UHGV virus genome: UHGV-0207574
Length of the DNA stretch: 16,650 nt
Direction: 5' to 3' (one strand)
DNA from: a virus
In this document: positions 74 through 15,992 of the stretch, piece by piece
Layout of the letters: every line of letters begins with the position of its first letter
Position numbering within the stretch: the stretch's first letter is position 1
Translations under genes and position numbers: made by a program
Notes under the pieces: model-generated
What the model was told of the DNA's origin: nothing
Database searches by the model: none
The model's input: the letters and a program-made list of their open reading frames with translations, nothing else

Positions 74-1009
74 ATGGAACCCCTTCGTGAAATAAGAAAT
101 CGGCTGCTTAACGGCTGGCAATTATCAAAAATGCATACTTTTGAAGTGGCTGCCAGGCATCAGTCCTTCGCCCTGGCGGCAGAGGAATTGTCGCTGAGCC
201 CCAGTGCGGTAAGTCACCGTATCAATCAGCTGGAAGAAGAATTGGGCATTCAGTTGTTTGTTCGTTCCCATCGCAAAGTGGAATTAACGCACGAGGGGAA
301 ACGTGTTTATTGGGCGCTAAAATCGTCGCTGGATACCCTGAACCAGGAAATTCTTGATATCAAAAATCAGGAGTTATCGGGAACGTTAACTCTGTATTCC
401 CGGCCCTCTATCGCCCAATGCTGGTTGGTGCCCGCATTAGGTGACTTTACACGCCGGTATCCGTCTATTTCGCTCACCGTGCTCACTGGTAATGACAACG
501 TCAATCTGCAACGTGCCGGAATCGATTTGGCGATCTACTTTGATGATGCGCCGTCAGCGCAACTCACTCATCACTTTCTGATGGATGAAGAAATCCTGCC
601 AGTATGTAGCCCGGAATACGCTCAAAGACATGCTTTAACCAACACGGTAATTAACCTGTGTCACTGTACGTTGCTCCATGACAGACAGGCATGGAGCAAC
701 GACTCCGGTACGGATGAATGGCATAGTTGGGCGCAACATTATGCGGTTAATTTGCCGACATCTTCTGGAATTGGCTTTGATCGTTCTGATTTAGCTGTTA
801 TTGCCGCGATGAATCATATTGGGGTGGCGATGGGAAGAAAACGCCTGGTACAAAAAAGGCTTGCCAGTGGTGAGCTCGTCGCGCCGTTTGGCGATATGAC
901 GGTGAAATGCCATCAGCATTATTACATCACCACATTACCGGGCAGGCAGTGGCCAAAAATTGAAGCGTTTATTATCTGGCTAAGAGAACAGGTAAAAACC
1001 ACTTCATAA
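74..1009 (+). CDS. dsdC: LysR-family transcriptional activator of D-serine utilisation (DsdC)
   Basis: The ORF track frame 68..1009 begins with GTG; the ATG at 74 follows a GAGG RBS and gives MEPLREIRNRLLNGWQLSKMHTFEVAARHQSFALAAEELSLSPSAVSHRINQLEEELG, an N-terminal LysR HTH followed by a substrate-binding domain. The sequence matches my recollection of E. coli DsdC. Stop TAA at 1007-1009. Confidence 0.88.
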   Translation: MEPLREIRNRLLNGWQLSKMHTFEVAARHQSFALAAEELSLSPSAVSHRINQLEEELGIQLFVRSHRKVELTHEGKRVYWALKSSLDTLNQEILDIKNQELSGTLTLYSRPSIAQCWLVPALGDFTRRYPSISLTVLTGNDNVNLQRAGIDLAIYFDDAPSAQLTHHFLMDEEILPVCSPEYAQRHALTNTVINLCHCTLLHDRQAWSNDSGTDEWHSWAQHYAVNLPTSSGIGFDRSDLAVIAAMNHIGVAMGRKRLVQKRLASGELVAPFGDMTVKCHQHYYITTLPGRQWPKIEAFIIWLREQVKTTS

Positions 1010-1103
1010 TGAATAAAACCACGAGTTCCTGGTGTGCCTTATTCGGCCTGCTAGTTCGAATTTAATTTACGGTTTTTATGTGGTTTTAGGGATAAACACA
1101 AGG

Positions 1104-1119
1104 ATGGTGTCCCCTGCAG
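1104..1119. repeat. att-right core (direct repeat of the argW 3' end)
   Basis: ATGGTGTCCCCTGCAG is identical to 13679-13694; flanking sequence diverges immediately on both sides. Confidence 0.8.
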
Positions 1120-1176
1120 ACATCTACTTGAGGCGGCAGGGGATTGATTGGAATGGTGTTTTTTAGATGTGAAAAA

Positions 1177-1393: not shown

Positions 1394-1412
1394 GAGTGCT
1401 ATCTCCGAATAT

Positions 1413-1428
1413 GGAATCGAACCTGCAA
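1413..1428. other. Internal 16-bp fragment identical to the argW variable-loop/T-arm region
   Basis: GGAATCGAACCTGCAA at 1413-1428 is identical to 13694-13709 inside the argW gene. It lies ~20 bp upstream of the torI start codon and ~300 bp inside the prophage. Confidence 0.5.
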
Positions 1429-1517
1429 ATCAGGCAATAAAAAGCCGCATTGATGCAGCAATGGTAGGTCTGGATATCTTGAGAAATGAACAGGCCTCAT
1501 CGAGTGTGAGACTGTGG

Positions 1518-1862
1518 TTAGTCCTTGCGTAGCTCGCTGATTCTTCTGTAAGTCTCTGGTGCTTTGTTTCCGTGTATCTTCATTTCAGACTTCAACAGAG
1601 CAACGAGGGAATCCCATTCGTTGAGGATGCCTTTGAATGCCGGAACGCGCTTTGCAACCTTGTCGAATGAATCTCTGATTTCTGGAATCTGCTCAACAAG
1701 CGCAACGCATCGCCGGAAATCTGCTGCGTCATGGGGAGCGCCGAAGTGATGACCATAGATATTCTTTTTCAGTCCACATGCGATTGAGGCAAGAGTTGCG
1801 CTACTTATGCCAACATCGCCAGTCGATTGCCATTTCAAAACCTTCATAGCCAAATCTGACAT
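1518..1862 (-). CDS. Hypothetical phage protein (114 aa)
   Basis: ORF track frame 1518..1889. The ATG at 1862 has a GGAGA RBS (GGAGACAAGAA ATG) and gives MSDLAMKVLKWQ...; the longer start at 1889 would lie inside a terminator hairpin. I do not recognise a family. Confidence 0.55.
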   Translation of the reverse strand: MSDLAMKVLKWQSTGDVGISSATLASIACGLKKNIYGHHFGAPHDAADFRRCVALVEQIPEIRDSFDKVAKRVPAFKGILNEWDSLVALLKSEMKIHGNKAPETYRRISELRKD

Positions 1863-1872
1863 TTCTTGTCTC

Positions 1873-1898
1873 CAATAAAAAACCGCCATCAGGCGGCT
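1873..1898 (-). terminator. Putative intrinsic terminator on the minus strand (GCCGCC-TGAT-GGCGG followed by TTTTTTATT)
   Basis: Minus-strand sequence CAAGCCGCCTGATGGCGGTTTTTTATTGGAG: a short GC stem, 4-nt loop and T-tract, immediately upstream of the RBS of the 1518..1862 ORF. An A-tract on the other side means it could act in both directions. Confidence 0.4.
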
Positions 1899-1962
1899 TG
1901 GTGTTCTTTCAGTTCTTCAATTCGAATATTGGTTACATTGTTTTCATATATGAATAAATAAA

Positions 1963-2142
1963 TTAGCTTTTTTCGTTGCCTTCGCGTTCTTTATTAATTT
2001 TGACAAACTCGTTTTTACCACGCTCTCCAAATGCGTCTTTAGAGTCGTTGTATCCGCAATCGCAGCACACATAATCACCAGACCATCCACGCATTGTTTT
2101 TTCTTTTGCAATATTTCCAGAACCGCATTTTGGACAAGACAT
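1963..2142 (-). CDS. Small zinc-ribbon protein (CPKC...CCDCG), 59 aa
   Basis: The ATG at 2142 is preceded by GGAGG (GGAGGTAGTGAT ATG) and gives MSCPKCGSGNIAKEKTMRGWSGDYVCCDCGYNDSKDAFGERGKNEF..., with two Cys pairs spaced as in a zinc ribbon. The ORF track start at 2175 is probably an overextension. Confidence 0.55.
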   Translation of the reverse strand: MSCPKCGSGNIAKEKTMRGWSGDYVCCDCGYNDSKDAFGERGKNEFVKINKEREGNEKS

Positions 2143-2238
2143 ATCACTACCTCCAAAGCATGAGTGAGATGACAACGTAACATTGATTGGAGATTAACAA
2201 TAGATTGCTGATGTAAAAGATATGTATAAGCTTCGCTT

Positions 2239-3066
2239 TCAAAGTGGAGGCTCTGGTAGCGGCATCCAGTGAGTTACGTCATCCAAGATATTTCCTGATA
2301 AATACGTGAAAGCTCTATATTTTTTGTAATCAATTGGATTTACAACCCAGTTCCAATATGCTGCCACGATTTCACCTTGACTAAATGCCAGTAACATTTT
2401 GGTGTCTTCCGGCATTCTCTCACTACAGCTTATCCAACCATCTGGAATTACCGGAGAGTTGCCAGATGGCTCGTTCAACTTGTAAGTTTGGCTTACAGGT
2501 TCGGCACCATGAAGCATGGCGTCGCTCCGCTCTATGCCATCCAGCGCGATTCGCAGTGCCTGAATTGTGGTAGAGCTATCGTTTGGGGCTATTCCATATC
2601 GCTCGAATACAGCTAAATGGTTGCGCATAATCTCAGGCGTAAGCTCTTTGTAAGCATAAGCAAGAGGCTCTGATGCATTATCCGGCACAACCGACGCAGG
2701 CGCGGCAGCATAAACAGGAATAACGTCCGCTTCACGAACCTGCATTGCATAGGCAACGATGTTTGCTGCGCTTGGCGTGTTCTTTGCGATCTCAGCGATA
2801 TAAGCAAAACCGCCAACAGACGCCGTTAACGATTTACGCTCCAGTTCATCGAAAAGCGTCAGGCCATCTACTGGCTTTTGCTCCCGGTGCATTCTGGTTA
2901 TTTCTTCGAAAAGGATTTTGTGTGGCCGGCTGTAAAATGAGTCAGGCTTCAGCATCGCCAGAACTTTCTGGACGCGCTCACTGCTGTCATCATCCAGAAG
3001 CAATCCACCAATCACCGCCTGCTCTGCCTCGATGCTATGGGGCGGCGCATAAAAATTATCGGTCAT
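2239..3066 (-). CDS. Chimeric replication-module protein: DnaB-helicase N-terminal domain fused to an Ead/Ea22-like region and a DUF551-like C-terminus; no helicase ATPase core
   Basis: The ATG at 3066 gives MTDNFYAPPHSIEAEQAVIGGLLLDDD ... LTASVGGFAYIAEIAKNTPSAANIVAYAMQVREA, which closely resembles the primase-interacting N-terminal domain of DnaB (PHSIEAEQ and SVGGFAY..KNTPSAANI motifs). The C-terminus (WISCSERMPEDT ... VTHWMPLPEPPL) resembles DUF551. Start overlaps the stop of the upstream O-like gene by 11 nt. Confidence 0.7.
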   Translation of the reverse strand: MTDNFYAPPHSIEAEQAVIGGLLLDDDSSERVQKVLAMLKPDSFYSRPHKILFEEITRMHREQKPVDGLTLFDELERKSLTASVGGFAYIAEIAKNTPSAANIVAYAMQVREADVIPVYAAAPASVVPDNASEPLAYAYKELTPEIMRNHLAVFERYGIAPNDSSTTIQALRIALDGIERSDAMLHGAEPVSQTYKLNEPSGNSPVIPDGWISCSERMPEDTKMLLAFSQGEIVAAYWNWVVNPIDYKKYRAFTYLSGNILDDVTHWMPLPEPPL

Positions 3067-3946
3067 CGTGTTCACCCTCACGAACTTTCAGGTAGGTATT
3101 GTCGTTAAGCAGGAAATCAAATCCCTTTTTGTGCCAGACGGTTCCGCGTTGATGGTTTGGGCGTTCTTCGAACATCCATCGGCAATTTTCGCCTACGTAG
3201 ATCAAATAATTTCTCCAGTCCTGCATCGTGAACCCATGCCCGTCAAGCTGGCGGGTTATCACTCCGGCTTTGCGCCAGAACGTTCGGATCTGGTTTTTAC
3301 GCTTGTCATTCAGTGCGCGGATTCTTGGCGCTTCAGGAAGGATTTCGTGGTAAGCATCGACAACATCCTGACAGCTGACGGAAGGTTTTTTCTTGTCAGA
3401 CTTTTTGTCTGCTGTGGCACTCTCTAATACGTCAGTATTAGAGATATTATTTATATTATTGTTTATGGACAACCGTTGGACAACCGTTGGACAATCTCCG
3501 CTGAGAGCCGCGCCATTACTGGTGTTTGCGTTGGACAACCGTTGGACAACCGTTGGACAATTTTTTGCCTGAAAATCGTCATATTTAACGATTGTAAACA
3601 GGCTAAATTTCTTCCCCATCGAGCAAATATTAAGCATCCCTTTCGACTCAAAAGTCCGTAATAAGCTCCGAACTTTGTTGTCGGGGATGAATGTTTCTCT
3701 GACCAGCGACGGGCGTCCAGTTATCATCTGACCGCGATCAACAGTTATCGGACCGATATCCGTATTGACGACAGTAGATTCGTGATTAGCCTTGAGGATT
3801 AAGTGAAGCCAAAGATGTACTGCCTGAGAGTCCTTATAGAGCCTGCTGTCCATAAACTGGCGGTGTATAGAGACATACCCCATACTGGATGCCTCCTGAT
3901 GTTGTACAGGGTTATGCCTGTAATCAGCTAACTTAACGACGCCCAT
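3056..3946 (-). CDS. Replication initiator, lambda O-like, with the origin iterons inside the gene
   Basis: 296-aa ORF with an N-terminal region resembling the phage O origin-binding domain (HLWLHLILKANHES...). A central linker is encoded by tandem 11-bp repeats, giving the duplicated peptide CPTVVQRLSN. Translationally coupled to the downstream gene. Confidence 0.7.
   Translation of the reverse strand: MGVVKLADYRHNPVQHQEASSMGYVSIHRQFMDSRLYKDSQAVHLWLHLILKANHESTVVNTDIGPITVDRGQMITGRPSLVRETFIPDNKVRSLLRTFESKGMLNICSMGKKFSLFTIVKYDDFQAKNCPTVVQRLSNANTSNGAALSGDCPTVVQRLSINNNINNISNTDVLESATADKKSDKKKPSVSCQDVVDAYHEILPEAPRIRALNDKRKNQIRTFWRKAGVITRQLDGHGFTMQDWRNYLIYVGENCRWMFEERPNHQRGTVWHKKGFDFLLNDNTYLKVREGEHDDR
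3465..3560. repeat. Putative replication origin: six iterons (unit TTGGACAACCG) in two clusters of three (3465-3496, 3531-3560)
   Basis: Direct tandem repeats seen in the sequence, lying inside the O-like gene as lambda ori lies inside O. Next to them in the gene's direction is an AT-rich tract (3440-3464) and a perfect 9-bp inverted repeat CTCTAATAC-GTCA-GTATTAGAG (3422-3443). Confidence 0.7.
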
Positions 3947-4094
3947 GTTTCACTCCTGCTTTGGCTAGTCTGTAAACACCAACAAGGCGCTCTGCGAACG
4001 CCCTGTTATTTGCTGCGGCTACCACTAATCCCTCAGGTGAATCAGGGTGTCGAATCTCTTCTTTTTCCTGGTATTTCTTACGACGTTTTGTCAT
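3933..4094 (-). CDS. Small basic hypothetical protein (53 aa), not in the ORF track (below the length cutoff)
   Basis: The ATG at 4094 is preceded by AGGAG (ACAGGAGTAATT ATG) and gives MTKRRKKYQEKEEIRHPDSPEGLVVAAANNRAFAERLVGVYRLAKAGVKHGRR. Its 3' end overlaps the RBS and start of the O-like gene. Lies between the cII-like and O-like genes. Confidence 0.4.
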   Translation of the reverse strand: MTKRRKKYQEKEEIRHPDSPEGLVVAAANNRAFAERLVGVYRLAKAGVKHGRR

Positions 4095-4128
4095 AATTAC
4101 TCCTGTGGATTGATCCAGTCTTTCTACA

Positions 4129-4407
4129 TCAGGCCTCGAAGAATTCGCCGTTCTTCGGGGCTTTTTCTTTTGTCAGCATTCTGGCTACTTTCTTAGCCAG
4201 TTCCGCCAACTCCTCGTCTTCAACACCCCATTCAAGAACAGCAAGAAGCATTCCCATTTTGGGGATGAAGCTGTCTTTCCATCGCGAAATTTGCGATTCA
4301 TTAATTCCTAACGCGTCAGCAACCTTTCGCTGACCACGTACAGCAATTCGATTCAGGATGTTGCTTGTAATTGCATTCGCTTTCTTGCGAGTACTTGTAA
4401 GTTCCAT
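4129..4407 (-). CDS. CII-like transcriptional regulator (92 aa)
   Basis: The ATG at 4407 with an AGGAAA RBS gives MELTSTRKKANAITSNILNRIAVRGQRKVADALGINESQISRWKDSFIPKMGMLLAVLEWGVEDEELAELAKKVARMLT..., closely resembling lambda CII (GVDKSQISRWKRDWIPKFSMLLAVLEWGV). The ORF track frame extends upstream to 4494. Confidence 0.75.
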   Translation of the reverse strand: MELTSTRKKANAITSNILNRIAVRGQRKVADALGINESQISRWKDSFIPKMGMLLAVLEWGVEDEELAELAKKVARMLTKEKAPKNGEFFEA

Positions 4408-4463
4408 ATGTAAGTATTTCCTTAACAAATAAGAAGTTATGCGCATCAACTTATGCGCGTTGT

Positions 4464-4509
4464 ATTCCCGCATTTCGGCGGGAATGAGGACCATGACTGT
4501 TAAAGAGCG
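4464..4509 (-). promoter_or_regulatory. nutR-like antitermination site: boxA CGCTCTTTAACA (4498-4509) and a boxB-like hairpin (4464-4485)
   Basis: Minus strand reads CGCTCTTTAACA, a 12-nt spacer, then ATTCCCGC-CGAAAT-GCGGGAAT (8-bp stem, GAAA-containing loop). It sits between the cro fragment and the cII-like gene, as nutR does in lambda. Confidence 0.5.
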
Positions 4510-4515
4510 GTGTTA

Positions 4516-4614
4516 CTATTTGTTTTTCTTGTTGCTTGGGAAAGGACGAACTTCCTCTCCAATCACACTGCCATCAGGCTTTACCGTAAACGACGCTATA
4601 CAGCCAGATGGCAA
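4516..4614 (-). pseudogene. cro gene, 3' fragment only
   Basis: Minus-strand frame ending at stop 4516-4518 translates to ...CIASFTVKPDGSVIGEEVRPFPSNKKNK, matching the lambda Cro C-terminus (INADGSVYAEEVKPFPSNKKTTA). There is no N-terminal part and no in-frame start. Confidence 0.65.
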
Positions 4615-4730
4615 TCAACTGCGCAGTGCATGAGAAAAAGCCCGCTCTGATGTTCAGCCTTGAAATGCCAGGTGATCAGATACTGGAAAAACTGGTAGGG
4701 CAGAAGTCTGGTGTTAACCCGAATATTTTT
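4611..4730 (+). pseudogene. Fragment of a DnaB-family helicase core (region just after Walker A), on the plus strand
   Basis: The first ~40 codons of the ORF track frame 4608..5093 read AINCAVHEKKPALMFSLEMPGDQILEKLVGQKSGVNPNIF, resembling E. coli DnaB (AMNLCENAAMLQDKPVLIFSLEMPSEQIMMRSL). The rest of that frame looks like non-coding alt-frame sequence. Confidence 0.4.
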
Positions 4731-4759
4731 TACCTTCCGGCGACAAATGACGCTGATGA

Positions 4760-5281
4760 CGGCTACTCGGGGAAAACATCCTTTCCTGCGATACGGAGAA
4801 GAGTATCCGGGAGCGATTTTCTGTTTACCAGGTGGCGGGGCAGCGTGCCGGAAACGACGATGATTTCGGTGAGGCCACCACCACCGCGCTGCGGGCCCGC
4901 ACAGAGGACGCATTTATTGCCCGTTACCGTCCGATGTATATCAGGCAGACAGGGCAGGCTACGGGGGCAGGCTGTATTGCCCGTGCGGACTTTGAAGCCC
5001 GGCAACGGGCGGCGCGGACGGATGAAACCACCTATGTGGTGCAGGGCTGGCGACAGGGTAACGGTACGCTGTGGCAGCCCAACCAGCGGGTGATTGTCTT
5101 CGATCCGGTCTGTGGTTTCGACAATACCGAACTGCTTGTCTCGGAAGTCACGTTTACTCAGGACCAGAATGGCACCCTGACGGAAATCCGTGTCGGCCCA
5201 CCTGATGCTTATCTGCCTGAACCCGAAGCCCCCGGCGCGCGGAAAAAGAAAAAAGCCAGAGTACAGGAGGACCCGTTCTGA
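4760..5281 (+). pseudogene. 5'-truncated baseplate-hub/tail gene (Mu gp44 / P2 gpD-like), C-terminal part
   Basis: The frame is open from the stop at 4757-4759 with only a GTG at 4832 as a possible start. Its stop overlaps the start of the downstream gpV-like gene (TGATG), and position and composition match the upstream member of a Mu-type baseplate cluster. Family assignment is by position, not recognised sequence. Confidence 0.45.
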
Positions 5282-7877: not shown

Positions 7878-8519
7878 ATGCATCGTATAGACACGAAAAC
7901 CGCGCAGAAGGATAAGTTCGGCGCGGGTAAGAACGGTTTTACCCGTGGTAACCCCCAGACCGGCACGCCTGCCACCGATCTGGATGATGACTACTTTGAC
8001 ATGTTGCAGGAGGAGCTTTGCAGCGTTGTGGAGGCCTCCGGTGCCAGCCTGGAGAAGGGGCGGCATGACCAGCTGCTTACCGCGCTTCGTGCGCTGCTGT
8101 TAAGCCGCAAGAATCCGTTTGGCGATATCAAATTGGACGGCACGGTGCAAAAGGCTCTCGAAAACCTTGGTTTGGGAGAAGCGGCTAAAAGAAATGTAGG
8201 GACAGGGGCGAATCAGATACCTGATATGGGTAGCTTCACGCTTTCTGTTTCAGGTACTGGATATCAAAAATTGCCATCCGGTTTAATTATTCAATGGGGG
8301 CCAATTGATGTTCCGCTGACGTCTCAGGACACAGTAACCTATTTTCCGATTGCATTTCCGAATAGATGTCTGCGGGTATTTGCGACTCAGGATTACACTC
8401 CCGGCAGTGCAAATGTTGGCTATATAGCTTGTGCCGGTTATAACCAGGACCCGGTGAAATTTATTTCCAGAGCAGGCGTACCCGGTCTCGGTGCTTCATT
8501 TTTCGCATTAGGGTGTTAA
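7878..8519 (+). CDS. Tail fibre protein (short; constant N-terminal part plus variable C-terminal part)
   Basis: GGAG RBS. The N-terminus [74 protein letters not shown] is the conserved tail-fibre N-terminal region of Mu/P2-type fibres. GC content drops sharply after ~8180. Confidence 0.7.
8155..8180. promoter_or_regulatory. Candidate relic serine-invertase crossover site (gix/hix-like) inside the tail-fibre gene
   Basis: CTCTCGAAAACC-TT-GGTTTGGGAGAA is an imperfect 26-bp dyad with the AAACC-NN-GGTTT core typical of Gin/Hin/Pin sites as I recall them. It lies at the constant/variable junction of the fibre and coincides with the GC drop. Confidence 0.35.
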
Positions 8520-8545
8520 TTTCTTTTAACTTTATGGAGTGAAAA

Positions 8546-8986
8546 ATGAATCACATATATTCCGCGACTACAAACTCTTTCTATCCCTTGGAGATGAAAG
8601 AGGATTACACGCAAGCTGGCTCATGGCCAGATGATGCTGTTGAAGTTGATGAGCAAGTGTATATTGAGTTTTCCGGATTACCGCCGAAAGGAAAAATCCG
8701 TATCGCTGGAGAAAATGGTTTTCCTGCATGGTCTGAAATTCCACCACCAACACATGAGGAACAGATTGCTGCAGCCGAACTGAAAAAGCAGCAATTGATT
8801 AATCAGGCCAACGATTATATGAACAGTAAACAATGGGCTGGTAAAGCGGCTATTGGTCGTCTGAAAGGTGAGGAACTGGCGCAATATAATTTGTGGCTGG
8901 ATTATCTGGACGCACTGGAGCTGGTCGATACTTCCAGTGCGCCAGATATTGAATGGCCTACTCCTCCGGCAGTTCAGGCCAGATGA
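8546..8986 (+). CDS. Tail fibre assembly protein (Tfa/U-like)
   Basis: 146-aa ORF with a GGAG RBS, ending ...SSAPDIEWPTPPAVQAR, a typical Tfa C-terminus. Immediately downstream of the tail-fibre gene. Confidence 0.7.
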   Translation: MNHIYSATTNSFYPLEMKEDYTQAGSWPDDAVEVDEQVYIEFSGLPPKGKIRIAGENGFPAWSEIPPPTHEEQIAAAELKKQQLINQANDYMNSKQWAGKAAIGRLKGEELAQYNLWLDYLDALELVDTSSAPDIEWPTPPAVQAR

Positions 8987-9260
8987 CATCCGGCGCGGTG
9001 CTGGTATCTGTTGCCGTCACCGCGTCAATGTAATCCAGCACAGTGTTAAGTCGGGAGGTCTCTGCCTGCATCAGCTTCCGCCCAGCCCGTAATTTCAGTT
9101 GAATCAGACTAATGGAAGCCATTGCAGTATCAATCAGTGACTGACGCTGTGCTTCTGCCGCGTCTACTGCGGCGTGATGCTGTGCCTCAGTATCGGTCAC
9201 CCATTTCTCACCATCCCATTTATCGTATGGCGTTAATGGGGCGATAGTCGCGGGACGCAT
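8958..9260 (-). pseudogene. Second tail fibre assembly gene (C-terminal half only), convergent with and overlapping the first
   Basis: Minus-strand frame MRPATIAPLTPYDKWDGEKWVTD...TSTAPDVIWPELPEE has a Tfa-like C-terminus. It is blocked upstream by a stop at 9318-9320, so at most ~120 codons remain. Overlaps the 3' end of the plus-strand tfa by ~29 bp. Confidence 0.5.
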
Positions 9261-9284
9261 ACAAACATAACCCCTGGATGTTAT

Positions 9285-9566
9285 GTGTCTATCGAGAATC
9301 AAAGTGGAAGTCCTTATGTTAAGTATAAGACAGGAATCACTTATAACGATAATCAGTTAGTATATGTATCTATCACTGTTGATGATAATATCAGCACTTG
9401 GTTCTGGAGGGGGTTTGTTGTGGGCAATGATGCATTTAAGTTATCGTCTGCAGATAGAGGAGATATTACAATAAACAACGAATCAGGGCATTTGATAGTC
9501 AATACCGCAATTCTATCAGGAGATATAGTCACTCTAAGAGGAGGAGAAATTAGGTTGGTATTATAG
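9285..9566 (+). other. Orphan ORF (93 codons, GTG start, no internal Met), possibly a 3' gene fragment
   Basis: VSIENQSGSPYVKYKTGITYNDNQ...DIVTLRGGEIRLVL is rich in N/T/S/V/I, like the beta-rich tip of a fibre. There is no ATG and only a weak RBS. It lies in low-GC DNA between the tfa remnant and gtrC. Confidence 0.25.
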
Positions 9567-9570
9567 CTTG

Positions 9571-9592
9571 TGCGCGCCATGATTGGCGCGCA
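9571..9592. repeat. Perfect GC-rich palindrome TGCGCGCCA-TGAT-TGGCGCGCA between the convergent stop codons of the orphan ORF and gtrC
   Basis: 9-bp perfect inverted repeat with a 4-nt loop and no adjacent T-tract on either strand. Could be a terminator-like hairpin or a protein-binding palindrome. Confidence 0.45.
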
Positions 9593-9600
9593 ATTTAAAC

Positions 9601-10932
9601 TTAGTGCTTTACATCGCTATTGTCTTGATTTCTTTGAATTATTTTATAAATTAAAAAAACGACTGTTATGTATAAGCAAAGGTCGAACGAAAAATACATT
9701 CCAAATAAATGCTTGCTTAAATCTCTATATCCTTCCCCGAAAAATGACACATAAAATTGAGATATTCCAAAAAGAGATACTACAAATAAAGATGCCTTTA
9801 TTTTATTATTTCTAATAAAAATAGAAGCAATAAAAAATAATAACAATGATATAAATCTAATGTTTTTAAATATATTGTCTTTTATGTTAGTAATAGTCGT
9901 TAGTATGTTTGATTCTCCATATATTACGTGTAGTTTTTTATATACATGGAAATAATTTTCTTTATACTGAGACATCACACCATCATCAAATGGAAGTTTG
10001 AAGATGGTGCTTGGTTTGCTAACCAATAAAAAGAGTGCATTCGAAAACGTTTCATCTTTATGAGATTCGAAACATTCCGTTCCAACTTCTGTTGGGGTTG
10101 CGCCAAATGATATGTCGAATTTATTACCCCAAGCATCTAACCCAACACACTTATCATCAACATACGATGGCATTTTATACCCGTTGTTTTTCATATAAAG
10201 ATAACTACCGAAGTATGTTGCATGGTACTTATTTAATTCAACAACACCTTTTGAATAAGATATTGCAAATATTGACGCAAGCAAGCACACCACGCATATT
10301 ACAGATTTAATAATTAGTTTGTGTCTATCAAAAAAAATATAATATGAATACACTATTAGTGGGGTTAATATAAATTGATTTTTAGCAGTAGATATTATTA
10401 GCAACGAAAAAAATAGCAAAAGCATAGATTTATTGTTTTTGCATGTTAATGAATACACCAAAAATGGAAGGAAAATTATAACTATTTGCTCTTGATAGAA
10501 TGATGCAAACATTGACAGTGTTGATGAAGAACACATAAGAAAAGCTAAAATAAAGAATGTAAATAAAGTTACATACCTTTCTGTTTTTATATATGAAGTA
10601 AATATCGCATATAATGAATAAATATATATTACTTTTAGAAATAACGATAACACCCTAGCATCAAGATATTCAGTAAAAATGCTAATAAACAGGACGTATG
10701 TATACAAAATATAACTATATGAACTTATATACTCATAGCTATCAATTGAATCAATATGACCTTTCAATTTATACAATAAAGGTAAGTCATATGTAAATGC
10801 TGGTATGTCTTCAATTAATGGCTTAATGGCTCTTCCGAAATCAGATGTATTTAACATCATTATGTTTTTAGATAAGGCGCAAATAATCAAAACAAAAGAT
10901 ATATACAATGATACTTTTATTGCTTTATTCAT
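9601..10932 (-). CDS. gtrS: Serotype-specific O-antigen glucosyltransferase, GtrC-type polytopic membrane protein (K-12 equivalent yfdI/gtrS)
   Basis: 443-aa, very AT-rich, highly hydrophobic multi-pass ORF. Third gene of a gtrA-gtrB-gtrC operon and translationally coupled to gtrB. The family is defined by position and topology rather than sequence conservation. Confidence 0.7.
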
Positions 10933-11849
10933 TTTTTGACTCTCTTGATGATGTATTTCGGGCGTTTTTTGGTTTCAATGTATGTGCGTCCAATATATTC
11001 ACCTAATACTCCTATTCCAATCATCTGAATTCCACCTAAAAACAGTATTGAAACAAGTAGTGAAGGATATCCCCTAACAGCATTTCCAAATATGATAGTA
11101 TCTAAAATCATCCACGCCCCATAAATAAATGCTACACTGGCTACCACTAACCCTATGTATGTCCAGATGCGAAGAGGGAATGTGGAAAAGCTTGTAATAC
11201 CCTCAAGTGCTAAATTCCAAAGTTTCCATCCATTAAATTTTGTATCTCCAGCAATTCTTTCCGCTCGCACGTATTCAACAATATCTGTCTTTCCTCCTAC
11301 CCAGCTCAGAATACCTTTCATGAAAAGGTTTCGTTCTGGCATAAGTTTAATATTTTCGACAACATCACGGCTCATCAGCCTGAAATCACCAACATTCTCT
11401 TCAATTTTAGGATTGCTTATTTTATTGTGGAGCTTATAGAACCACTCAGCCGTTTTTCGCTTCAGGCGTCCATCAGTTGAGCGGTCAGATCTTTTAGCAA
11501 GAACCATATCAGCACCTGCTTGCCATTTTTCAATAAGATGAGGAATAACCTCAATCGGGTCTTGCAGGTCAACATCAATTGGGATTATCGCATCCCCGGT
11601 TGCATGGTCTAACCCTGCAAACAATGCTGGTTCTTTACCAAAGTTGCGTGTAAATGACAGCGGAACAACTAGAGGATCTGAAACAGCCAGAGCATTAATG
11701 ATTGACTCCGTAGCGTCTTTGCTGCCGTCATTTATGAAAACGATTTCCACTTCATATGACTTCAATTCTTCGAATTCACGTACCGTTTTATAAAAAATTG
11801 GTATCGCTTCTTCTTCATTGAAGACAGGAACTACAAGAGATATCTTCAT
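10929..11849 (-). CDS. gtrB: Bactoprenol glucosyltransferase GtrB (GT2 family)
   Basis: 306-aa [23 protein letters not shown]...INDGSKDAT...DVDLQDP: a GT2 catalytic domain followed by C-terminal transmembrane helices, as in GtrB/YfdH. Confidence 0.85.
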
Positions 11850-12208
11850 TTCGCATCCCTAAAGACAATGAACTTTGAATAGACGAAACCGCACACCAGG
11901 CTGATGGCGGAGAAGGTGACAAGAGTTATCATCGGGGGAAGTGCGCATCTATCAGCAGCCCATCCAACAGTAGCACTCAGTGTCCCCATGAACCCAACAT
12001 ATAGCATGTAGCGCATCGTTGTAGTCGATGCCTTGAATGTGAATTTTGCATTCGCGAAGAAGCTAAAGCTCACAGCCACAACGAAACCTGCGAAGTTTGC
12101 AAGAGCTTGGTTTGTATGCGCGACATAGATACAAACACCAAAAACCACCCAGTGTATAAGGGTGTTCAGCACACCAATAGAGGTGTACTTTGCAAATAGC
12201 TTTAACAT
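11846..12208 (-). CDS. gtrA: GtrA family flippase for undecaprenyl-phosphate glucose
   Basis: 120-aa small four-helix membrane protein, first gene of the operon, overlapping gtrB by 4 nt. Confidence 0.8.
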
Positions 12209-12360
12209 TTCTTCTATCAGCTAATAATCAAAGGAATGAAGTCTATCATCCAAGTCTTAATCGATCGATACTTGCTGTGGTTGATGAGACAAAACTTATA
12301 CACACAAAGCTTTGCACTGGATTGCAAGACTTTGTGCTATTCGATAGTTGTTAAGGTCGC

Positions 12361-13518
12361 TCACTCCACCTTCTCATCAAGCCAGTCCGCCCACCATTGC
12401 ATCATTTCTCTGCGTTTATCGAGATACTGAGCATGGTTGTAAATCCCACGCACAGATCCGCCGTTTGCATGTGCCAGTTGCACTTCAATAGCGTCAGCAG
12501 GCCATTCGTGCTCGTTCATAATCGTGCTGAATTCATGCCTGAATCCGTGACCGCTTTCCAGACCCTCATAGCCGATTTGTTTGATCACAAGCAGTACCGC
12601 GTTCTCGCAGATTGGCTTCTTCTTATCGTTGCGCCCGGCAAAAACAAACTCTGAGACTGGTTTGGTGATGGAGCTTAGCGTAGTGAGAAGTTCAACTACC
12701 TGGTCTGACATAGGAACCACATGAATTTTGCGTCCTTTCATCACACTGGCGTCGATGGTGATAATCCTATTTTCAAAATCGACGTTCTTCCATAGCATGG
12801 AACGAAGCTCTTTCGTTCTTAGGGCTGTGTAGCGTAAAACTTTGGTCGCAATGAGCGATACGATACTTCCTGAAAATGTTGCCAGTGCTTTGTTGAATGC
12901 CGGGATCTGGTCTGCAGGAAGAAACGGGAAGTTCTTCTTGCGGTATCCCTTCATGGCGTCAGCAAGGTCAGGTGCCGGGTTATATTTAGCCCTTCCGGTG
13001 ACAATAGCGTAACGGAAAACCTCGCCGCATCTTCTGCGTGCTTTGTTGGCTCGTTCCATTGCACCGCGATCTTCAAACCTGCGGATTACTTCCAGCAGTT
13101 GCATCGGCTCAATATCCTGAATTTCAAGGCCGCCAATGATAGGTAAAATGTCGTCGTCAAACATTTTGGCAAGTTCAGTTGCATACCCTACTGACCATAC
13201 TTGCTTCTTGTGCTCGTACCATTCCTTGTAAATCGCACTAAAGGAATTGTTGTTAGACGAAGCCTTTTTCGCCTTTACAGGATCGATGCCAACCGAGATG
13301 TCTTTCCTCGCAGTCCATGCTTTATCCCTTGCCTCCTGCAAAGTCATAAGCGGATATTTTCCGACGGTCAGGATTTTCTCCTTACCGTCAATCTTGTAGC
13401 GAAGCTGCCATACCTTTTTCCCTGACACAGGGACATAAAGGTACAGGCCATTACCATCGAGAAGGCGGTATGGTTTTTCTTTCGGCTTTGCTGCTTCAAT
13501 CTGCTTAACGGTGAGCAT
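12361..13518 (-). CDS. intS: Tyrosine-family site-specific integrase (IntS-like)
   Basis: From the ATG at 13518 (MLTVKQIEAAKPKEKPYRLLDGNGLYLYV...) the protein has a P4-type integrase N-terminus and a C-terminal catalytic domain (...HGFRHEFSTIMNEH...GIYNHAQYL). The ORF track starts at an upstream GTG at 13554. Adjacent to the tRNA. Confidence 0.85.
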   Translation of the reverse strand: MLTVKQIEAAKPKEKPYRLLDGNGLYLYVPVSGKKVWQLRYKIDGKEKILTVGKYPLMTLQEARDKAWTARKDISVGIDPVKAKKASSNNNSFSAIYKEWYEHKKQVWSVGYATELAKMFDDDILPIIGGLEIQDIEPMQLLEVIRRFEDRGAMERANKARRRCGEVFRYAIVTGRAKYNPAPDLADAMKGYRKKNFPFLPADQIPAFNKALATFSGSIVSLIATKVLRYTALRTKELRSMLWKNVDFENRIITIDASVMKGRKIHVVPMSDQVVELLTTLSSITKPVSEFVFAGRNDKKKPICENAVLLVIKQIGYEGLESGHGFRHEFSTIMNEHEWPADAIEVQLAHANGGSVRGIYNHAQYLDKRREMMQWWADWLDEKVE

Positions 13519-13563
13519 GGGTAAAAATCCGGTGGGTAAAATTATTTTATCCACTTTTTACCC
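13519..13563. repeat. Octamer repeats GGGTAAAA (13519-13526, 13534-13541) and inverted TTTTTACCC (13555-13563) at the integrase 5' end; candidate arm-type or RDF binding sites
   Basis: Seen directly. The same motif occurs twice next to att-right (1177-1198). Confidence 0.4.
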
Positions 13564-13678
13564 GTCATGGAGTGCGGCTGTCAACGATCTGAAGCGAACC
13601 ATGACGAACTGTAAATCTACGGAATGCTTGATATTCAGGGGATTTTGCGGACTGGTACGGATGGGAGCGAACTGATAA

Positions 13679-13694
13679 ATGGTGTCCCCTGCAG
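13679..13694. repeat. att-left core overlapping the 3' end of argW
   Basis: ATGGTGTCCCCTGCAG, identical to 1104-1119. Confidence 0.8.
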
Positions 13695-13754
13695 GAATCG
13701 AACCTGCAATTAGCCCTTAGGAGGGGCTCGTTATATCCATTTAACTAAGAGGAC
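13680..13754 (-). tRNA. argW: tRNA-Arg (anticodon CCU)
   Basis: Minus-strand 75-nt sequence GTCCTCTTAGTTAAATGGATATAACGAGCCCCTCCTAAGGGCTAATTGCAGGTTCGATTCCTGCAGGGGACACCA. It has the acceptor stem, an anticodon loop CU-CCU-AA, a GGTTCGATTCC T-arm and an encoded CCA end. Confidence 0.9.
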
Positions 13755-13765
13755 AATGCGGCATG

Positions 13766-13794
13766 AGTATACCCGCTAATGGAGTGCGGGGTAA
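13766..13794 (-). promoter_or_regulatory. Putative argW promoter (-35 TTACCC, 17-bp spacer, -10 TATACT)
   Basis: Minus-strand hexamers ~12 nt upstream of the mature tRNA 5' end, followed by a GC-rich discriminator. Weak -35 element. Confidence 0.3.
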
Positions 13795-13829
13795 GTACGC
13801 TGCCGCTCGATTGCTTAAACCCTCGCCAT

Positions 13830-14762
13830 TTATGCCGGGTTTTTATAATTTTTCTTAATGTTTTCCGCACGTTCTGCTTTTTGGCGTGCTTCTGCTTTAC
13901 GCTTATTGCTCATGTCGTTACGAATCTGTGCATGACTCATTAACGCGAAGATAAAGGTGCCGCCGCAGATGTTCCCCGCTAAAGTAGGTAGTGCGAAGGG
14001 CCAGATGAAATCGCTCCAGTGCAGCGTACCGTTAAACACCAGATAGAGGATTTCAACAGAACCGACCACGATATGGGTGGTGTCACCCAGGGCAATAAGC
14101 CAGGTCATCAATATAATCACCACAATCTTTGCCGCACCCGCTGCAGGAAACATCCAAACCATAGTGGCGATCAGCCAGCCGGAAATGATCGCGTTGGCAA
14201 ACATCTCGCTGGGGGTGTTCTTCATCACATCCATGCCGATTTTGACAAATGCATCGCGAGTTTCTTCATTGAAGATAGGCATATATTCAAATGCCCACGC
14301 CGCAATACCTGTCCCGAGAATATTACCCAGCAGCACGACGCCCCATAACCGTATAAGTAAGCCGACGTTGCTCATTGTCGGTTTTTGCATGACGGGTAGT
14401 ACCGCAGTCACGGTATTTTCGGTAAATAATTGCTGGCGGGCCATAATGACGATAATAAAACCAAAGGTATAACCGAGATTCTCCAGCAAGAAGCTGCCCG
14501 GCACACCTTCCAGTTCGACTTGAAATATCCCTTTTGCCAGTAACGAAGCGCCCATCGACAGACCCGCCGCAATGGCTGACCACAGTAGCGCCATTGCGTC
14601 GCGTTCCAGCTCTTTTTCACCATCCTGGCGGATATGCTCATGAATTGCCATCGCCCGGGAGGGGAGTCGGTCTTCATCTATTTCTATTTTTTTGCCGCGC
14701 TCTTTTTCTTCGCTCTCAACTTCAATTTCGTCGCTGTGTTGATCAATTTTGTCGTTGTCCAT
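13830..14762 (-). CDS. yfdC: Formate/nitrite transporter (FNT) family inner-membrane protein
   Basis: 310-aa ORF with an acidic N-terminal extension followed by a polytopic membrane core. Matches my recollection of E. coli YfdC in size and position next to argW. Confidence 0.8.
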   Translation of the reverse strand: MDNDKIDQHSDEIEVESEEKERGKKIEIDEDRLPSRAMAIHEHIRQDGEKELERDAMALLWSAIAAGLSMGASLLAKGIFQVELEGVPGSFLLENLGYTFGFIIVIMARQQLFTENTVTAVLPVMQKPTMSNVGLLIRLWGVVLLGNILGTGIAAWAFEYMPIFNEETRDAFVKIGMDVMKNTPSEMFANAIISGWLIATMVWMFPAAGAAKIVVIILMTWLIALGDTTHIVVGSVEILYLVFNGTLHWSDFIWPFALPTLAGNICGGTFIFALMSHAQIRNDMSNKRKAEARQKAERAENIKKNYKNPA

Positions 14763-14943
14763 GGTCTCTTCTCTTGAATTAGCACGTATAGCTAAAGCGT
14801 AGCGGCTTTTTTGCTCGCAACTGACGGGAGTTACTCTGAAAATGTAGAAAAGGCTGCGTTTGCCTTTTTCTGTTTCTATAGAATCAAGTAGCCTACAGGG
14901 CGGCGATTACCAGGCTATGATCAAATCAGCAAATCAGGGCGTC

Positions 14944-14971
14944 TGGACATCAGTTGACGTGCTGTTACAAT
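14944..14971 (+). promoter_or_regulatory. Putative sigma-70 promoter for mlaA (-35 TGGACA, 16-bp spacer, -10 TACAAT)
   Basis: Hexamers at 14944-14949 and 14966-14971, ~85 bp upstream of the mlaA start. Confidence 0.35.
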
Positions 14972-15055
14972 CGCCCACACCTAAACAGGCGGATACGGTA
15001 TCGTTCCGTCATGGATGGCAAACTGCATAAGCCATAAAAAAACAGGGAGACATTT

Positions 15056-15811
15056 ATGAAGCTTCGCCTGTCGGCGCTTGCTCTGGGAACTACGCTTCTG
15101 GTGGGGTGTGCGAGTTCCGGTACAGATCAGCAAGGGCGTTCTGACCCGTTAGAAGGGTTCAACCGCACCATGTACAACTTCAACTTCAATGTATTAGACC
15201 CGTATATTGTTCGACCGGTCGCTGTCGCCTGGCGTGATTATGTTCCGCAACCGGCGCGTAACGGTTTGAGCAACTTTACTGGCAACCTTGAAGAACCTGC
15301 GGTGATGGTTAACTACTTCTTGCAGGGCGACCCTTATCAGGGGATGGTCCACTTTACCCGCTTTTTCCTGAACACCATTTTGGGGATGGGCGGTTTTATT
15401 GATGTTGCAGGGATGGCGAACCCGAAACTGCAACGGACTGAACCTCACCGCTTCGGTAGTACGCTTGGTCATTATGGCGTGGGTTATGGGCCTTACGTTC
15501 AGTTACCGTTCTACGGTAGCTTCACGCTGCGTGATGACGGTGGTGATATGGCGGATGGTCTTTACCCGGTTCTTTCCTGGCTGACCTGGCCGATGTCTGT
15601 GGGTAAATGGACGCTTGAAGGGATCGAAACCCGCGCTCAGCTGCTGGATTCCGATGGTCTGCTGCGTCAGTCGTCCGATCCTTATATTATGGTGCGCGAA
15701 GCGTACTTCCAGCGTCATGATTTCATCGCTAATGGCGGCGAACTCAAACCGCAGGAAAATCCGAACGCACAAGCGATTCAGGATGATTTAAAAGATATTG
15801 ATTCTGAATAA
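15056..15811 (+). CDS. mlaA: Outer-membrane lipoprotein MlaA/VacJ (phospholipid asymmetry maintenance)
   Basis: AGGGAG RBS; MKLRLSALALGTTLLVGCASSG has a lipoprotein signal peptide with lipobox LVGC. 251 aa, matching my recollection of MlaA/VacJ. Confidence 0.88.
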   Translation: MKLRLSALALGTTLLVGCASSGTDQQGRSDPLEGFNRTMYNFNFNVLDPYIVRPVAVAWRDYVPQPARNGLSNFTGNLEEPAVMVNYFLQGDPYQGMVHFTRFFLNTILGMGGFIDVAGMANPKLQRTEPHRFGSTLGHYGVGYGPYVQLPFYGSFTLRDDGGDMADGLYPVLSWLTWPMSVGKWTLEGIETRAQLLDSDGLLRQSSDPYIMVREAYFQRHDFIANGGELKPQENPNAQAIQDDLKDIDSE

Positions 15812-15826
15812 GAAACAAATAAAAAA

Positions 15827-15852
15827 GGTGAGTCGCAAAACTCACCTTTTTT
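15827..15852. terminator. Bidirectional intrinsic terminator between convergent mlaA and the yfdF-like gene
   Basis: AAAAAA-GGTGAG-TCGCAAAA-CTCACC-TTTTTT: a 6-bp stem flanked by an A-tract and a T-tract. Confidence 0.7.
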
Positions 15853-15992
15853 GTTGTTATCCCTCAATTACCACAAGTAAAAGGAGATAAACCGACAATG
15901 ACCTAGACGTAATTATGTAAAAATACTGATGTTCGTCACTGACTATTTCCGATATTCAGCTGTTGAAAAATCAAAAAACTGGAAAAATAATT

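Follow-up and report, generated by a model that had tools for sequence, protein, structure and literature searches.

Organisation of the locus

An intact gene encoding an O-like replication initiator has been identified on the minus strand of the window, the term used here for the whole stretch of 16,650 nucleotides (16.65 kb) that was analysed. The middle of this gene carries six 11-nt units with the core TGTCCAAC, arranged in two triplets. Directly 3' of the repeats, in the direction of the gene, lie an AT-rich tract and then a perfect palindrome (Table 1). An AT-rich tract and an inverted repeat following the repeats had been reported in a first-pass annotation of this DNA, and both have been located in that order in the current analysis.

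The order cII - small orf - O - helicase in the window is canonical, with the promoter pR deleted. Upstream of cII, cro is reduced to its 3' part (~4516-4589), and neither pR nor the repressor gene is present. The small ORF is the counterpart of P22 orf48 and HK97 gp53 and is annotated in Sf6 and mEpX2. The window as a whole is a CPS-53/KpLE1-type cryptic prophage, which E. coli K-12 matches at 1-1515 and 7940-16063 only. CPS-53 of E. coli K-12 was considered as a carrier of the same origin and was rejected, as the K-12 matches leave the origin region uncovered.

Table 1. Positions of the features in and around the O-like initiator gene
Feature	Position	Strand	Description
O-like replication initiator gene, intact	3056-3946	-	ORF of 296 aa; PHROG 345
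Domains of the O-like protein	aa ~23-125; ~126-187; ~190-296		N-terminal DNA-binding (predicted); linker encoded by the putative origin; C-terminal
Iteron triplet 1 (first in gene direction)	3531-3563	-	three 11-nt units, TTGTCCAACGG on the coding strand
Inter-triplet spacer	3498-3530	-	poorly conserved in homologues
Iteron triplet 2	3465-3497	-	adjoins AT tract; last unit cut to TTGTCCA, runs into AT tract
AT-rich tract, likely DNA-unwinding element	3445-3465		20/21 bases A/T (95%)
Perfect palindrome TCTCTAATAC-tgac-GTATTAGAGA	3421-3444		arms 3421-3430/3435-3444, 10 nt; loop 4 nt
Partner DnaB-like helicase remnant	2239-3081	-	phage-collinear N-terminal part 2731-3081, ~117 codons; fused in frame to DUF551
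Inverted internal fragment of the same helicase gene	4588-4765	+	blastn against mEpX2: L011 5669->5492, 99.4%
Small conserved ORF between cII and O, 53 aa	3933-4094	-	PHROG 1331, E 1e-37
cII-like activator gene	4129-4407	-	Pfam Phage_CII, E 2e-42; coordinates mapped from mEpX2

The O-like initiator protein

The full length of the O-like protein is matched by PHROG 345, described as 'replication initiation O-like' (E 6e-84). The same gene, at ~99% nucleotide identity, is present in Sf6 (gene 43), HK022 (gene 54, O), HK75, HK633, HK106, mEpX2, mEp234, IME10 and Huey, and the protein shares 82% amino acid identity with the initiator of phage L / ST64T. Searches of Pfam, NCBIfam and PDB sequences with this protein assigned it to no family and revealed no relative of solved structure. 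PHROG families annotated as 'DnaD-like helicase loader' match the N-terminal domain (E 1e-23 to 1e-10), and this similarity to DnaD-like or replisome-organiser proteins is the basis of its predicted DNA-binding fold.

The AlphaFold model, for which a shallow alignment of 15 sequences served as input, is confident for the C-terminal domain alone (pLDDT 80-93); the linker has values below 35 and the N-terminal domain is modelled with low confidence. A Foldseek search of the PDB with this model gave no match at E <0.6. The weak top matches are winged-helix regulators and were rejected as evidence for the fold.

Adjacency on the DNA could account in part for the co-inheritance of the repeats with the N-terminal domain described below; the repeats are, however, about as close to the coding region of the C-terminal domain as to that of the N-terminal domain.

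The repeat array

The core TGGACAA is exact in all six units, which start at 3466, 3477 and 3488 and at 3532, 3543 and 3554, that is at a spacing of 11 nt. The two triplets are exactly 66 nt apart and have in common a block of 30 nt that is 100% identical. The full 11-mer TTGGACAACCG is exact in three of the units only; one further unit has 1 mismatch to it, and the final unit of each triplet has 2-3, at its 3' end. The first-pass description of six copies in two triplets is confirmed. At no more than one mismatch, TTGGACAACCG has 4 matches in the whole window, all of them in the repeat region, where 0.30 are expected, and 4 or more such matches were reached in 0 of 200 shuffles. Triplet 1 recurs in Sf6 and an E. 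coli prophage. The junctions between the units (CAACGGTTG) were considered as true dyad-symmetric binding sites and were rejected, since neither phage L nor the other repeat classes show this symmetry.

Comparison of homologous loci

The comparison covers 33 loci, comprising the window along with phage loci and species-representative loci of Enterobacterales. In 31 of them there are two triplets at a period of 66 nt, 17-24 nt of 82-95% A+T and a perfect inverted repeat with arms of 9-11 nt, and two further full-length loci keep this layout with a unit spacing of 12 nt. The AT tract, of the same range of length and composition, is at the equivalent position in every full-length homologue. CCA is invariant in all 198 units (six units in each of the 33 loci), and the mean information content in the homologues is ~1.3 bits per column for the units as against 0.75 for the spacer. 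Six repeat classes have been recognised among the loci compared, for example that of Klebsiella, with repeats of GTGCCAACA.

A first scan of IMG/VR yielded 80 loci, which were used for the counts of copy number and exact identity; being near-identical, they are of no use for covariation. The 165-nt segment 3411-3575 is identical, base for base, in 33 IMG/VR phage contigs. The search of a plasmid collection gave 5 matches only, of which the top two (48-50 kb) are phage-genome-like, and no small replicon of the kind that would demonstrate autonomous replication.

A Mantel test relates repeat class to identity in the initiator's N-terminal domain (rho 0.42, p 5e-4), and for the C-terminal domain there is no correlation (rho -0.01). 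Fourteen pairs of loci have C-terminal domains at least 90% identical and yet differ in their repeats, with N-terminal domains only ~50% identical, while no pair among the 33 loci combines N-terminal domains at least 80% identical with a differing repeat core. In these comparisons the repeat sequence changes together with the N-terminal domain of the initiator and not with the C-terminal domain. In hybrids of lambdoid phages the iteron specificity is known to follow the N-terminal domain of the initiator.

The repeats could also be viewed as a feature of the protein, either a duplicated linker peptide of 22 residues or a neutral, slippage-prone duplication with no role as DNA. Translation of the 66-nt module does give a peptide repeat, although the duplicated decapeptide of the first-pass annotation is shortened to nine residues, CPTVVQRLS, which occur twice, once before N and once before I. 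The copy number of the module varies from 1 to 3 among natural alleles, as unequal crossing-over predicts, the proteins of 274, 296 and 318 aa having 3, 6 and 9 units respectively. This explanation is nevertheless hardly credible. The 11-nt period places the three units of a triplet in three different frames of the O-like ORF, where they encode unrelated residues, and conservation is at the nucleotide level, as in the invariant CCA of every unit. One third of the supposed peptide repeat consists of the spacer, in which conservation is poor. The repeat class changes en bloc along with the N-terminal domain, and this region of the protein is disordered in the AlphaFold model.

The AT-rich tract and the palindrome

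GC content is 22-27% in 40-nt windows over the region of the AT tract. The duplex 3436-3465 is the second least stable of the non-overlapping 30-mers of the window and ranks 3 of 16,621 among overlapping 30-bp windows. The inverted repeat at the far side of this tract had earlier been given as 9 bp; it is present and perfect, but each arm (TCTCTAATAC/GTATTAGAGA) has 10 nt. As single-stranded DNA the palindrome would form a hairpin of dG -7.8/-8.4 kcal/mol (z -4.2/-5.0).

Homologous palindromes have ten different arm sequences, the dyad being kept and the sequence not. Two-sided changes are seen at every one of the 10 pairs, 97.5% of the cells are paired, and these covariation values were reached in 0 of 500 shuffles. 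The 16 distinct homologous sequences account for 43 double changes and for no one-sided (G-U type) intermediate in the stem, and the encoded peptide varies freely among homologues (ISNTDVLE, NSLTNVRE, NSISKDIE, NLLPNGSK). Judged by these compensatory changes, the palindrome appears to be selected as a DNA dyad.

Alternatively, the palindrome and the T-rich stretch of the plus strand could act in RNA, as an intrinsic terminator antisense to O or as a hairpin of the mRNA, and be no part of an origin. A consensus scan rates 3421-3444 together with TATTATTTAT as terminator-like on the plus strand, the record of phage L has an antisense 'terminator' over the same palindrome, and the RNA hairpin has a dG of ~-13 kcal/mol (z -3.6 to -4.4). 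However, its stem has just 3 G-C pairs, the tail begins with UAUUAUU and not with a run of U, no known promoter feeds antisense transcription here, and the ori of lambda has an equivalent palindrome at the same place. Double changes without one-sided intermediates point, moreover, to strict Watson-Crick symmetry on both strands, that is to DNA. A function in RNA is therefore considered quite improbable. The Rfam search of the region gave no match.

As a tentative suggestion, which we regard as possible and somewhat short of probable, the 24-bp palindrome may be a sequence-independent structural element of the DNA (hairpin or cruciform) that such origins require. It is prompted by the perfect dyad maintained through at least ten sequences, with every pair compensated, no wobble intermediates and a free peptide, as well as by the equivalent dyad at the same relative position in lambda ori.

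Relationship to known replication modules

The Sf6/HK022 group of phages shares with the window the six TTGTCCAACGG units, the AT tract and the palindrome; between Sf6 and the window 2 bases differ within the units. These phages encode a full DnaB-like helicase of ~478 aa downstream and have pR and cro upstream, whereas the window is without both. Gene 18 of phage L / ST64T has six TGTCCAACGGA repeats in two triplets 66 nt apart and identical palindrome arms; it differs in that the first base of several units is A, not T, and the N-terminal 22 residues of the initiator diverge. Whether initiators of the window type and the phage L type cross-react is a question that has been raised (PMC2629481).

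The O proteins of HK620, VT2-Sakai and the Stx phages belong to the same family with the same layout. Their C-terminal domain is 99% identical and their palindrome identical to those of the window, whereas identity in the N-terminal domain falls to ~50% and the repeats are of the HK620 class, TTACCAGCA. This difference is a module swap, the breakpoint of which lies between the repeats and the palindrome.

The site had been likened in the first-pass annotation to lambda ori with units of 11 bp. Examination of the lambda ori sequence bears this out for the order of parts, which consists of iterons, ~40 nt of AT-rich DNA and an inverted repeat with 12-nt arms and a 4-nt loop, likewise placed within the inter-domain part of the initiator gene. 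The parts themselves differ, as lambda has four iterons of ~19 bp, each a dyad, at a spacing of 20-24 nt, whereas the direct repeats of the window are six, of 11 nt each, and form two phased triplets. Lambda O acts via P, which captures the host DnaB, while the family of the window is paired with a DnaB-like helicase of its own; such a helicase, and not a P-type loader, is encoded by the downstream gene in all relatives. Among the hallmarks of the lambda type, the order of parts in the linker-coding region is found, and the Phage_rep_O domain, the ~19-bp iterons and the P-type loader are not. Since Pfam gave no match to Phage_rep_O (PF04492), even for the isolated N-terminal domain at E up to 10, and BLASTP gave no similarity between the O-like protein and lambda O (E 4.5), the analogy is architectural and not one of homology.

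The gene 18 / gene 12 module of P22 occupies the same genome position and likewise has a phage helicase of the DnaB type as its partner (gp12; Wickner 1984, as cited in PMC8022706). Identity between the gp18 proteins of P22 and phage L is just 25%, and the repeats of P22 are four in number and ~20 bp long, as opposed to 11 bp (PMC8022706). According to genetic work cited in the same paper (Hilliker 1981), P22 and L exchange the whole replication region and not single genes.

Replisome organisers and DnaD-like initiators of Gram-positive phages, such as G38P of SPP1, are relatives of the N-terminal domain by PHROG, and tblastn with the O-like protein reaches genes of Staphylococcus, Bacillus and Lactobacillus phages. 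The alignment is confined to aa 23-150, with identities of 22-31%, and there is no relationship in the C-terminal domains or the repeats. In SPP1 the origin oriL is located within its own initiator gene 38.

Probable identity as a replication origin and proposed mechanism

On the basis of these comparisons the repeats and the adjoining elements are very likely to be the cis-acting replication origin of a lambdoid replication module of the HK022 / Sf6 / phage L (ST64T) type. The earlier proposal of an iteron-type origin within the O-like gene is thus supported by existing annotation and literature, by the 33-locus comparison and by the comparison with lambda ori. GenBank records of Sf6 (AF547987), HK620 and phage L carry a rep_origin feature on the same repeats; that of Sf6 reads 'putative; repeat region reminiscent of the phage lambda origin; similar to phage HK620', and every database annotation of the origin is labelled 'putative'. 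The six 11-bp repeats of phage L gene 18, TGTCCAACGGA, have been described as the likely origin (Zaworski et al. 2021, PMC8022706). The origin reading is hence not new, since the site has been both annotated and described in print as a putative origin. The current analysis shows its anatomy, its conservation, the co-inheritance of repeat class and N-terminal domain, and the covariation of the dyad. The searchable literature yielded no experiment on binding, footprinting or plasmid replication for origins of this type.

The mode of action proposed below, with binding, unwinding and helicase recruitment, rests on the analogy with lambda O and ori. The putative origin occupies the stretch of the gene that codes for the inter-domain linker of the initiator. 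The N-terminal domain would recognise the 11-nt direct repeats through the invariant CCA and the clade-specific bases flanking it. The spacing of 11 nt (one helical turn) and the cluster distance of 66 nt would bring all sites onto one face of the helix, and six sites, three in each cluster, would allow a multimeric initiator-DNA complex. This complex may strain and open the adjoining AT-rich tract of ~20-45 bp, upon which the C-terminal domain would recruit the phage's own DnaB-like helicase, encoded directly downstream. The palindrome at the far edge of the tract is probably a structure at the DNA level (hairpin or cruciform) and may stabilise the open state or mark a site of loading or priming.

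State of the module in the cryptic prophage

The helicase ORF, which has ~480 aa in intact homologues, is broken in the window. Pfam assigns the DnaB N-terminal domain to aa 13-117 of the remnant and DUF551 to aa 215-279, and collinearity with phage mEpX2 stops at 2731. The plus-strand ORF 4608-5093 has weak matches to DnaB_C and PHROG 19. An intact helicase gene directly downstream, overlapping the end of the initiator gene, is hence absent from the window, which concerns the state of this copy and not the identity of the site.

It had been suggested that the origin could still be functional. The cis-acting site is intact, as the segment shared with the IMG/VR contigs demonstrates, but the helicase is broken and pR with the 5' end of cro is lost. 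Autonomy in the strict sense, in which the resident O gene and repeats replicate the excised element or a cloned fragment, draws on this preserved segment and on the intact O ORF, and is very improbable nonetheless. Of the helicase, only the N-terminal domain precedes the fusion to DUF551, a second piece is inverted 1.5 kb away, and no P-type loader is present that could recruit the host DnaB. The loss of pR and of the 5' end of cro leaves O without its native promoter and the origin without transcription through it; in lambda, transcription through the origin is needed for its activation.

The module in the window is thus a fossil with an intact site and O gene, for which no activity is expected in situ, the helicase and pR being lost, and which could probably fire only in trans by means of the proteins of a related phage. 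For the same reasons the fragment cloned with the O gene alone in a suicide vector is most likely to be replication-negative, a result that would not refute the origin reading.

Retention of the O gene and origin for interference with incoming phages of the same type, by titration of the initiator or by wasteful firing in the chromosome, has also been considered. Site and O ORF are intact while neighbouring genes are wrecked, and ectopic copies of ori-lambda are reported to inhibit the growth of lambda (PMC4488673, PMC3349717). This arrangement is, however, found in no complete E. coli genome of the collection, the best coverage being 80% for the window and 53% for 1400-4900, so that there is no sign of long-term retention in a lineage. 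Little titration is to be expected from one chromosomal copy, and the intactness may simply reflect recent decay. Such a role is regarded as improbable.

Implications

As a discovery the locus carries little weight, since the putative origin is already known, the module is very common among lambdoid phages and the copy in the window is a relic. The comparative data offer strong computational support for the 11-nt units as probable binding sites of the initiator, and at least six specificity classes, in all of which the CCA core is invariant, can be distinguished. If the structural reading of the palindrome is true, its covariation would be a clean handle on the role of a long-ignored element of lambdoid origins, possibly in helicase loading, in priming or in stabilising the melted state. 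These results could guide the first biochemistry of this type of origin, which is also used by the Shiga-toxin phages of the VT2-Sakai group.

Organisation of the putative origin

Six copies of TGGACAA, spaced by 11 nt, lie on the plus strand within the gene of the O-like initiator and are arranged in two triplets, as the first-pass annotation had described. The second triplet lies at exactly 66 nt from the first, and a 30-nt block is 100% identical in both. Three units match the full 11-mer exactly, whereas the last unit of each triplet is degenerate at its 3' end. When up to one mismatch is allowed the 11-mer has four matches in the window, all in the origin region (0.30 expected), a number reached in none of 200 shuffles. 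The duplicated peptide claimed for these repeats is present, but the triplets of 33 nt each translate to CPTVVQRLS and not to CPTVVQRLSN. Every 11-nt unit is read in a different frame; this three-frame reading, together with conservation at the nucleotide level, excludes the explanation that the repeats are purely a protein-level repeat.

An AT-rich tract and an inverted repeat adjoin the iterons. The inverted repeat had been recognised earlier with arms of 9 nt, which are in fact one nucleotide longer. Among the non-overlapping 30-bp stretches of the 16.65-kb window, 3436-3465 ranks second least stable as a duplex. The AT-richest and least stable duplexes of the window are found in the region of the yfdI-like glucosyltransferase gene, which is consistent with foreign, low-GC serotype-conversion genes.

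Coordinates of the putative origin, its surroundings and related loci
Feature	Position	Strand	Remarks
O-like initiator gene	3056-3946	-	contains all parts of the origin
Iteron triplets	3465-3497, 3531-3563		
TGGACAA units	starts 3466, 3477, 3488, 3532, 3543, 3554	+	
AT-rich tract	3445-3465		between palindrome and repeats; A+T 20/21
Inverted repeat	arms 3421-3430 and 3435-3444		10-nt arms, 4-nt loop
274-, 296- and 318-aa alleles	L002 1825-2135; window 3465-3563		initiators P0037 (274 aa) and P0001 (318 aa)
DnaB-like helicase remnant (fusion ORF)	2239-3081	-	N-terminal domain fused in frame to DUF551 sequence
Inverted internal helicase fragment	4588-4765	+	178 nt; adjoins tail genes, beyond cro remnant
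oop-type antisense RNA region	4085-4172	+	between small orf and cII
Segment unlike CPS-53-like relatives and mEpX2	1516-2730		
yfdI-like gene region	9600-10750		
Prophage landmarks	tRNA 13683-13754		dsdC, torI, baseplate genes, yfdGHI-like genes, intS, tRNA, yfdC, mlaA
Loci with 12-nt spacing (L095, L096)	~1015-1125		Silvania hatchlandensis; Leclercia MAG
Rouxiella silvae locus (L122)	570-680		

The reading of these elements as an iteron-type origin with the architecture of lambda ori agrees with existing putative origin annotations and with the lambda sequence (NC_001416). Lambda has four annotated iterons, dyads of about 19 nt spaced 20-24 nt. Next to them come about 40 nt of A-rich DNA and then GTCAGAGAATTC-tggc-GAATCCTCTGAC, an inverted repeat with 12-nt arms and a 4-nt loop, so that the parts succeed one another as they do in the window. 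The binding sites differ in kind, being dyads in lambda and, as predicted here, phased direct repeats in the window. There is also no detectable relationship between lambda O and the O-like initiator: BLASTP gave no similarity between the two, and a Pfam search of the O-like protein gave no Phage_rep_O match.

The initiator and its natural alleles

The 296-aa initiator gave a full-length hit to PHROG 345 (replication initiation O-like; E 6e-84), and its N-terminal half gave further hits to PHROG families of DnaD-like helicase loaders. At the DNA level the gene shares about 99% identity with the O genes of Sf6, HK75, HK633, HK106, mEpX2, mEp234, IME10 and Huey. At the protein level, identity is 82% with gp18 of the Salmonella phages L and ST64T, and 66% with O of HK620 and VT2-Sakai. 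In the AlphaFold model the C-terminal domain is helical and confidently predicted (pLDDT 80-93), the N-domain shows the pattern helix-helix-helix-strand-strand at low confidence, and the linker between them, which the origin encodes (residues 126-187), has a pLDDT below 35. A fold search with this model gave no significant match.

Initiators of 274, 296 and 318 aa occur naturally; they contain a module of 22 aa (66 nt) once, twice and three times, corresponding to 3, 6 and 9 iterons, and the Salmonella branch repeats this pattern (277 versus 299 aa). The linker therefore tolerates changes, and the number of iterons ranges from 3 to 9.

Co-variation of the repeats with the initiator

The homologue set comprises six annotated phage homologues and 31 loci from species-representative Enterobacterales genomes, and 33 loci were analysed in register. 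In 31 of the 33, two triplets with a 66-nt period are followed by 17-24 nt of 82-95% A+T and by a perfect inverted repeat with arms of 9-11 nt. Two further full-length loci keep this layout with a unit spacing of 12 nt; their units read ATTACCAA..., their triplets are 68 nt apart, and AT tract and palindrome are unchanged. CCA is invariant (6/6 units, 33/33 loci), and the bases flanking it define six repeat classes: TGTCCAAC, TGTCCAGC, TTACCAGC, TTACCAAC, GTGCCAAC and AATCCAAA. The spacer between the triplets is poorly conserved.

Repeat class is associated with identity in the N-domain (residues 23-125; Mantel rho 0.42, p 5e-4) and not in the C-domain (residues 190-296; rho -0.01). Fourteen pairs, exemplified by the window and HK620, have C-domains at least 90% identical, yet their repeats differ and their N-domains are only about 50% identical. 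Many other pairs have repeats and N-domain in common with C-domains only 45-65% identical, and the repeat core never differs between loci whose N-domains share 80% identity or more. This co-variation supports the repeats as the predicted binding sites of the initiator. The same pattern of module swapping has long been known for lambda, 21, 82 and phi80. Swap breakpoints among the present homologues fall between repeats and palindrome. Physical adjacency contributes to the pattern, but the coding region of the C-domain is about as near the repeats as that of the N-domain.

The genes at the Rouxiella silvae locus and L121 resemble this family in the C-terminal domain alone. The former has a different N-terminal part and four copies of a different repeat, CCCTGTGCCG, again in a 66-nt duplication, and neither an AT tract nor a palindrome is obvious immediately beyond these repeats. 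Two occurrences outside the enterobacteria are likely to be contamination or mislabelling: an enterobacterial-type gene with the repeat class and palindrome of the window in an assembly labelled Chryseobacterium sp. 18061 (Bacteroidota; L113), and another such gene on a 501-nt contig labelled Catenulispora yoronensis (Actinomycetota; L119), with 100% identity to a Klebsiella-type query over the C-terminal part.

The palindrome

All loci have the 24-bp palindrome aligned by its centre and in one and the same frame, yet at least 10 different arm sequences occur. Among 16 distinct sequences 97.5% of the cells are paired, changes on both sides occur at 10/10 pairs (43 cells) and one-sided changes at none; 0/500 shuffles and no slid register come close. 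The encoded peptide is free to vary (ISNTDVLE, NSLTNVRE, ISSTDVEE, NSISKDIE, NLLPNGSK, TILSDDSI). Because paired changes are seen at all 10 pairs while the peptide varies freely, selection acts on the dyad symmetry.

The absence of G-U type intermediates points to a palindrome that acts as DNA and not as RNA, and as a single-stranded DNA hairpin it has a dG of about -8 kcal/mol (z -4 to -5). An antisense terminator, suggested by a terminator-like scan score and by the terminator annotated there in the phage L record, is unlikely given the weak stem, the lack of a U run after it and the lack of wobble pairs. Palindrome class tracks the C-domain only loosely (rho 0.59, exceptions occurring both ways), a relationship that linkage explains better than does a co-evolving protein that would recognise the palindrome.

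By analogy with lambda O, the N-domain would bind the six phased sites, which the 11-nt spacing and the 66-nt distance would place on one face of the helix. The complex may then open the AT tract and the C-domain recruit the phage DnaB-like helicase, with the palindrome possibly assisting in opening, loading or priming.

State of the copy in the window

The gene order cII - small orf - O - helicase is canonical for lambdoid phages. The oop-type region is conserved and includes the lambdoid homology block of 33 nt as well as a strong terminator, whose stem at 4131-4163 is followed by TTTCTTTT; oop-type RNA is not among the Rfam families, and Rfam reported no match there.

The whole window is a cryptic prophage of the CPS-53/KpLE1 type at tRNA-Arg, collinear with phage mEpX2 only from 2731 to 4589. 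Within this span lie the helicase gene up to about codon 117, O, the small orf, cII and a 3' portion of cro. The segment 1516-2730 matches neither CPS-53-like relatives nor mEpX2; its coding content is the DUF551 portion of the fusion ORF and two small phage ORFs, of PHROG 1229 and PHROG 2945. The broken helicase points to an inversion, with one breakpoint in cro and the other in the helicase gene, and to later deletions. None of the complete E. coli genomes in the collection has this arrangement.

The origin segment 3411-3575 (165 nt) is identical in 33 of 80 IMG/VR contigs, where the helicase ORF is about 480 aa. Both pR and the repressor gene are missing from the window, as is the 5' part of cro. 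An intact cis site is thus left orphaned. The suggestion that the origin could still be functional has to be limited accordingly, autonomous firing being very unlikely with a broken helicase and no pR. In trans, a related phage might fire the origin or have its initiator titrated by it. A role of the relic as a decoy against related phages is likewise possible, but finds no support in the distribution.

The Sf6 record (AF547987) has a rep_origin that coincides with the repeats exactly ('putative; repeat region reminiscent of the phage lambda origin; similar to phage HK620'), and the HK620 and phage L records carry equivalent features. Six 11-bp repeats within gene 18 have been described as the likely origin of phage L; L gp18 has only 25% identity with P22 gp18, which has four repeats of about 20 bp, and older genetics cited in the same work shows that P22/L exchange works for the whole replication region and not for single genes (Zaworski et al. 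2021, PMC8022706). A literature search found no biochemical or plasmid test of an origin of the HK022/Sf6/L type. The feature is real, was read correctly in the first-pass annotation, and has already been annotated and published as a putative origin, the copy in the window being defective; to this the comparative details on the origin are a useful, incremental addition.
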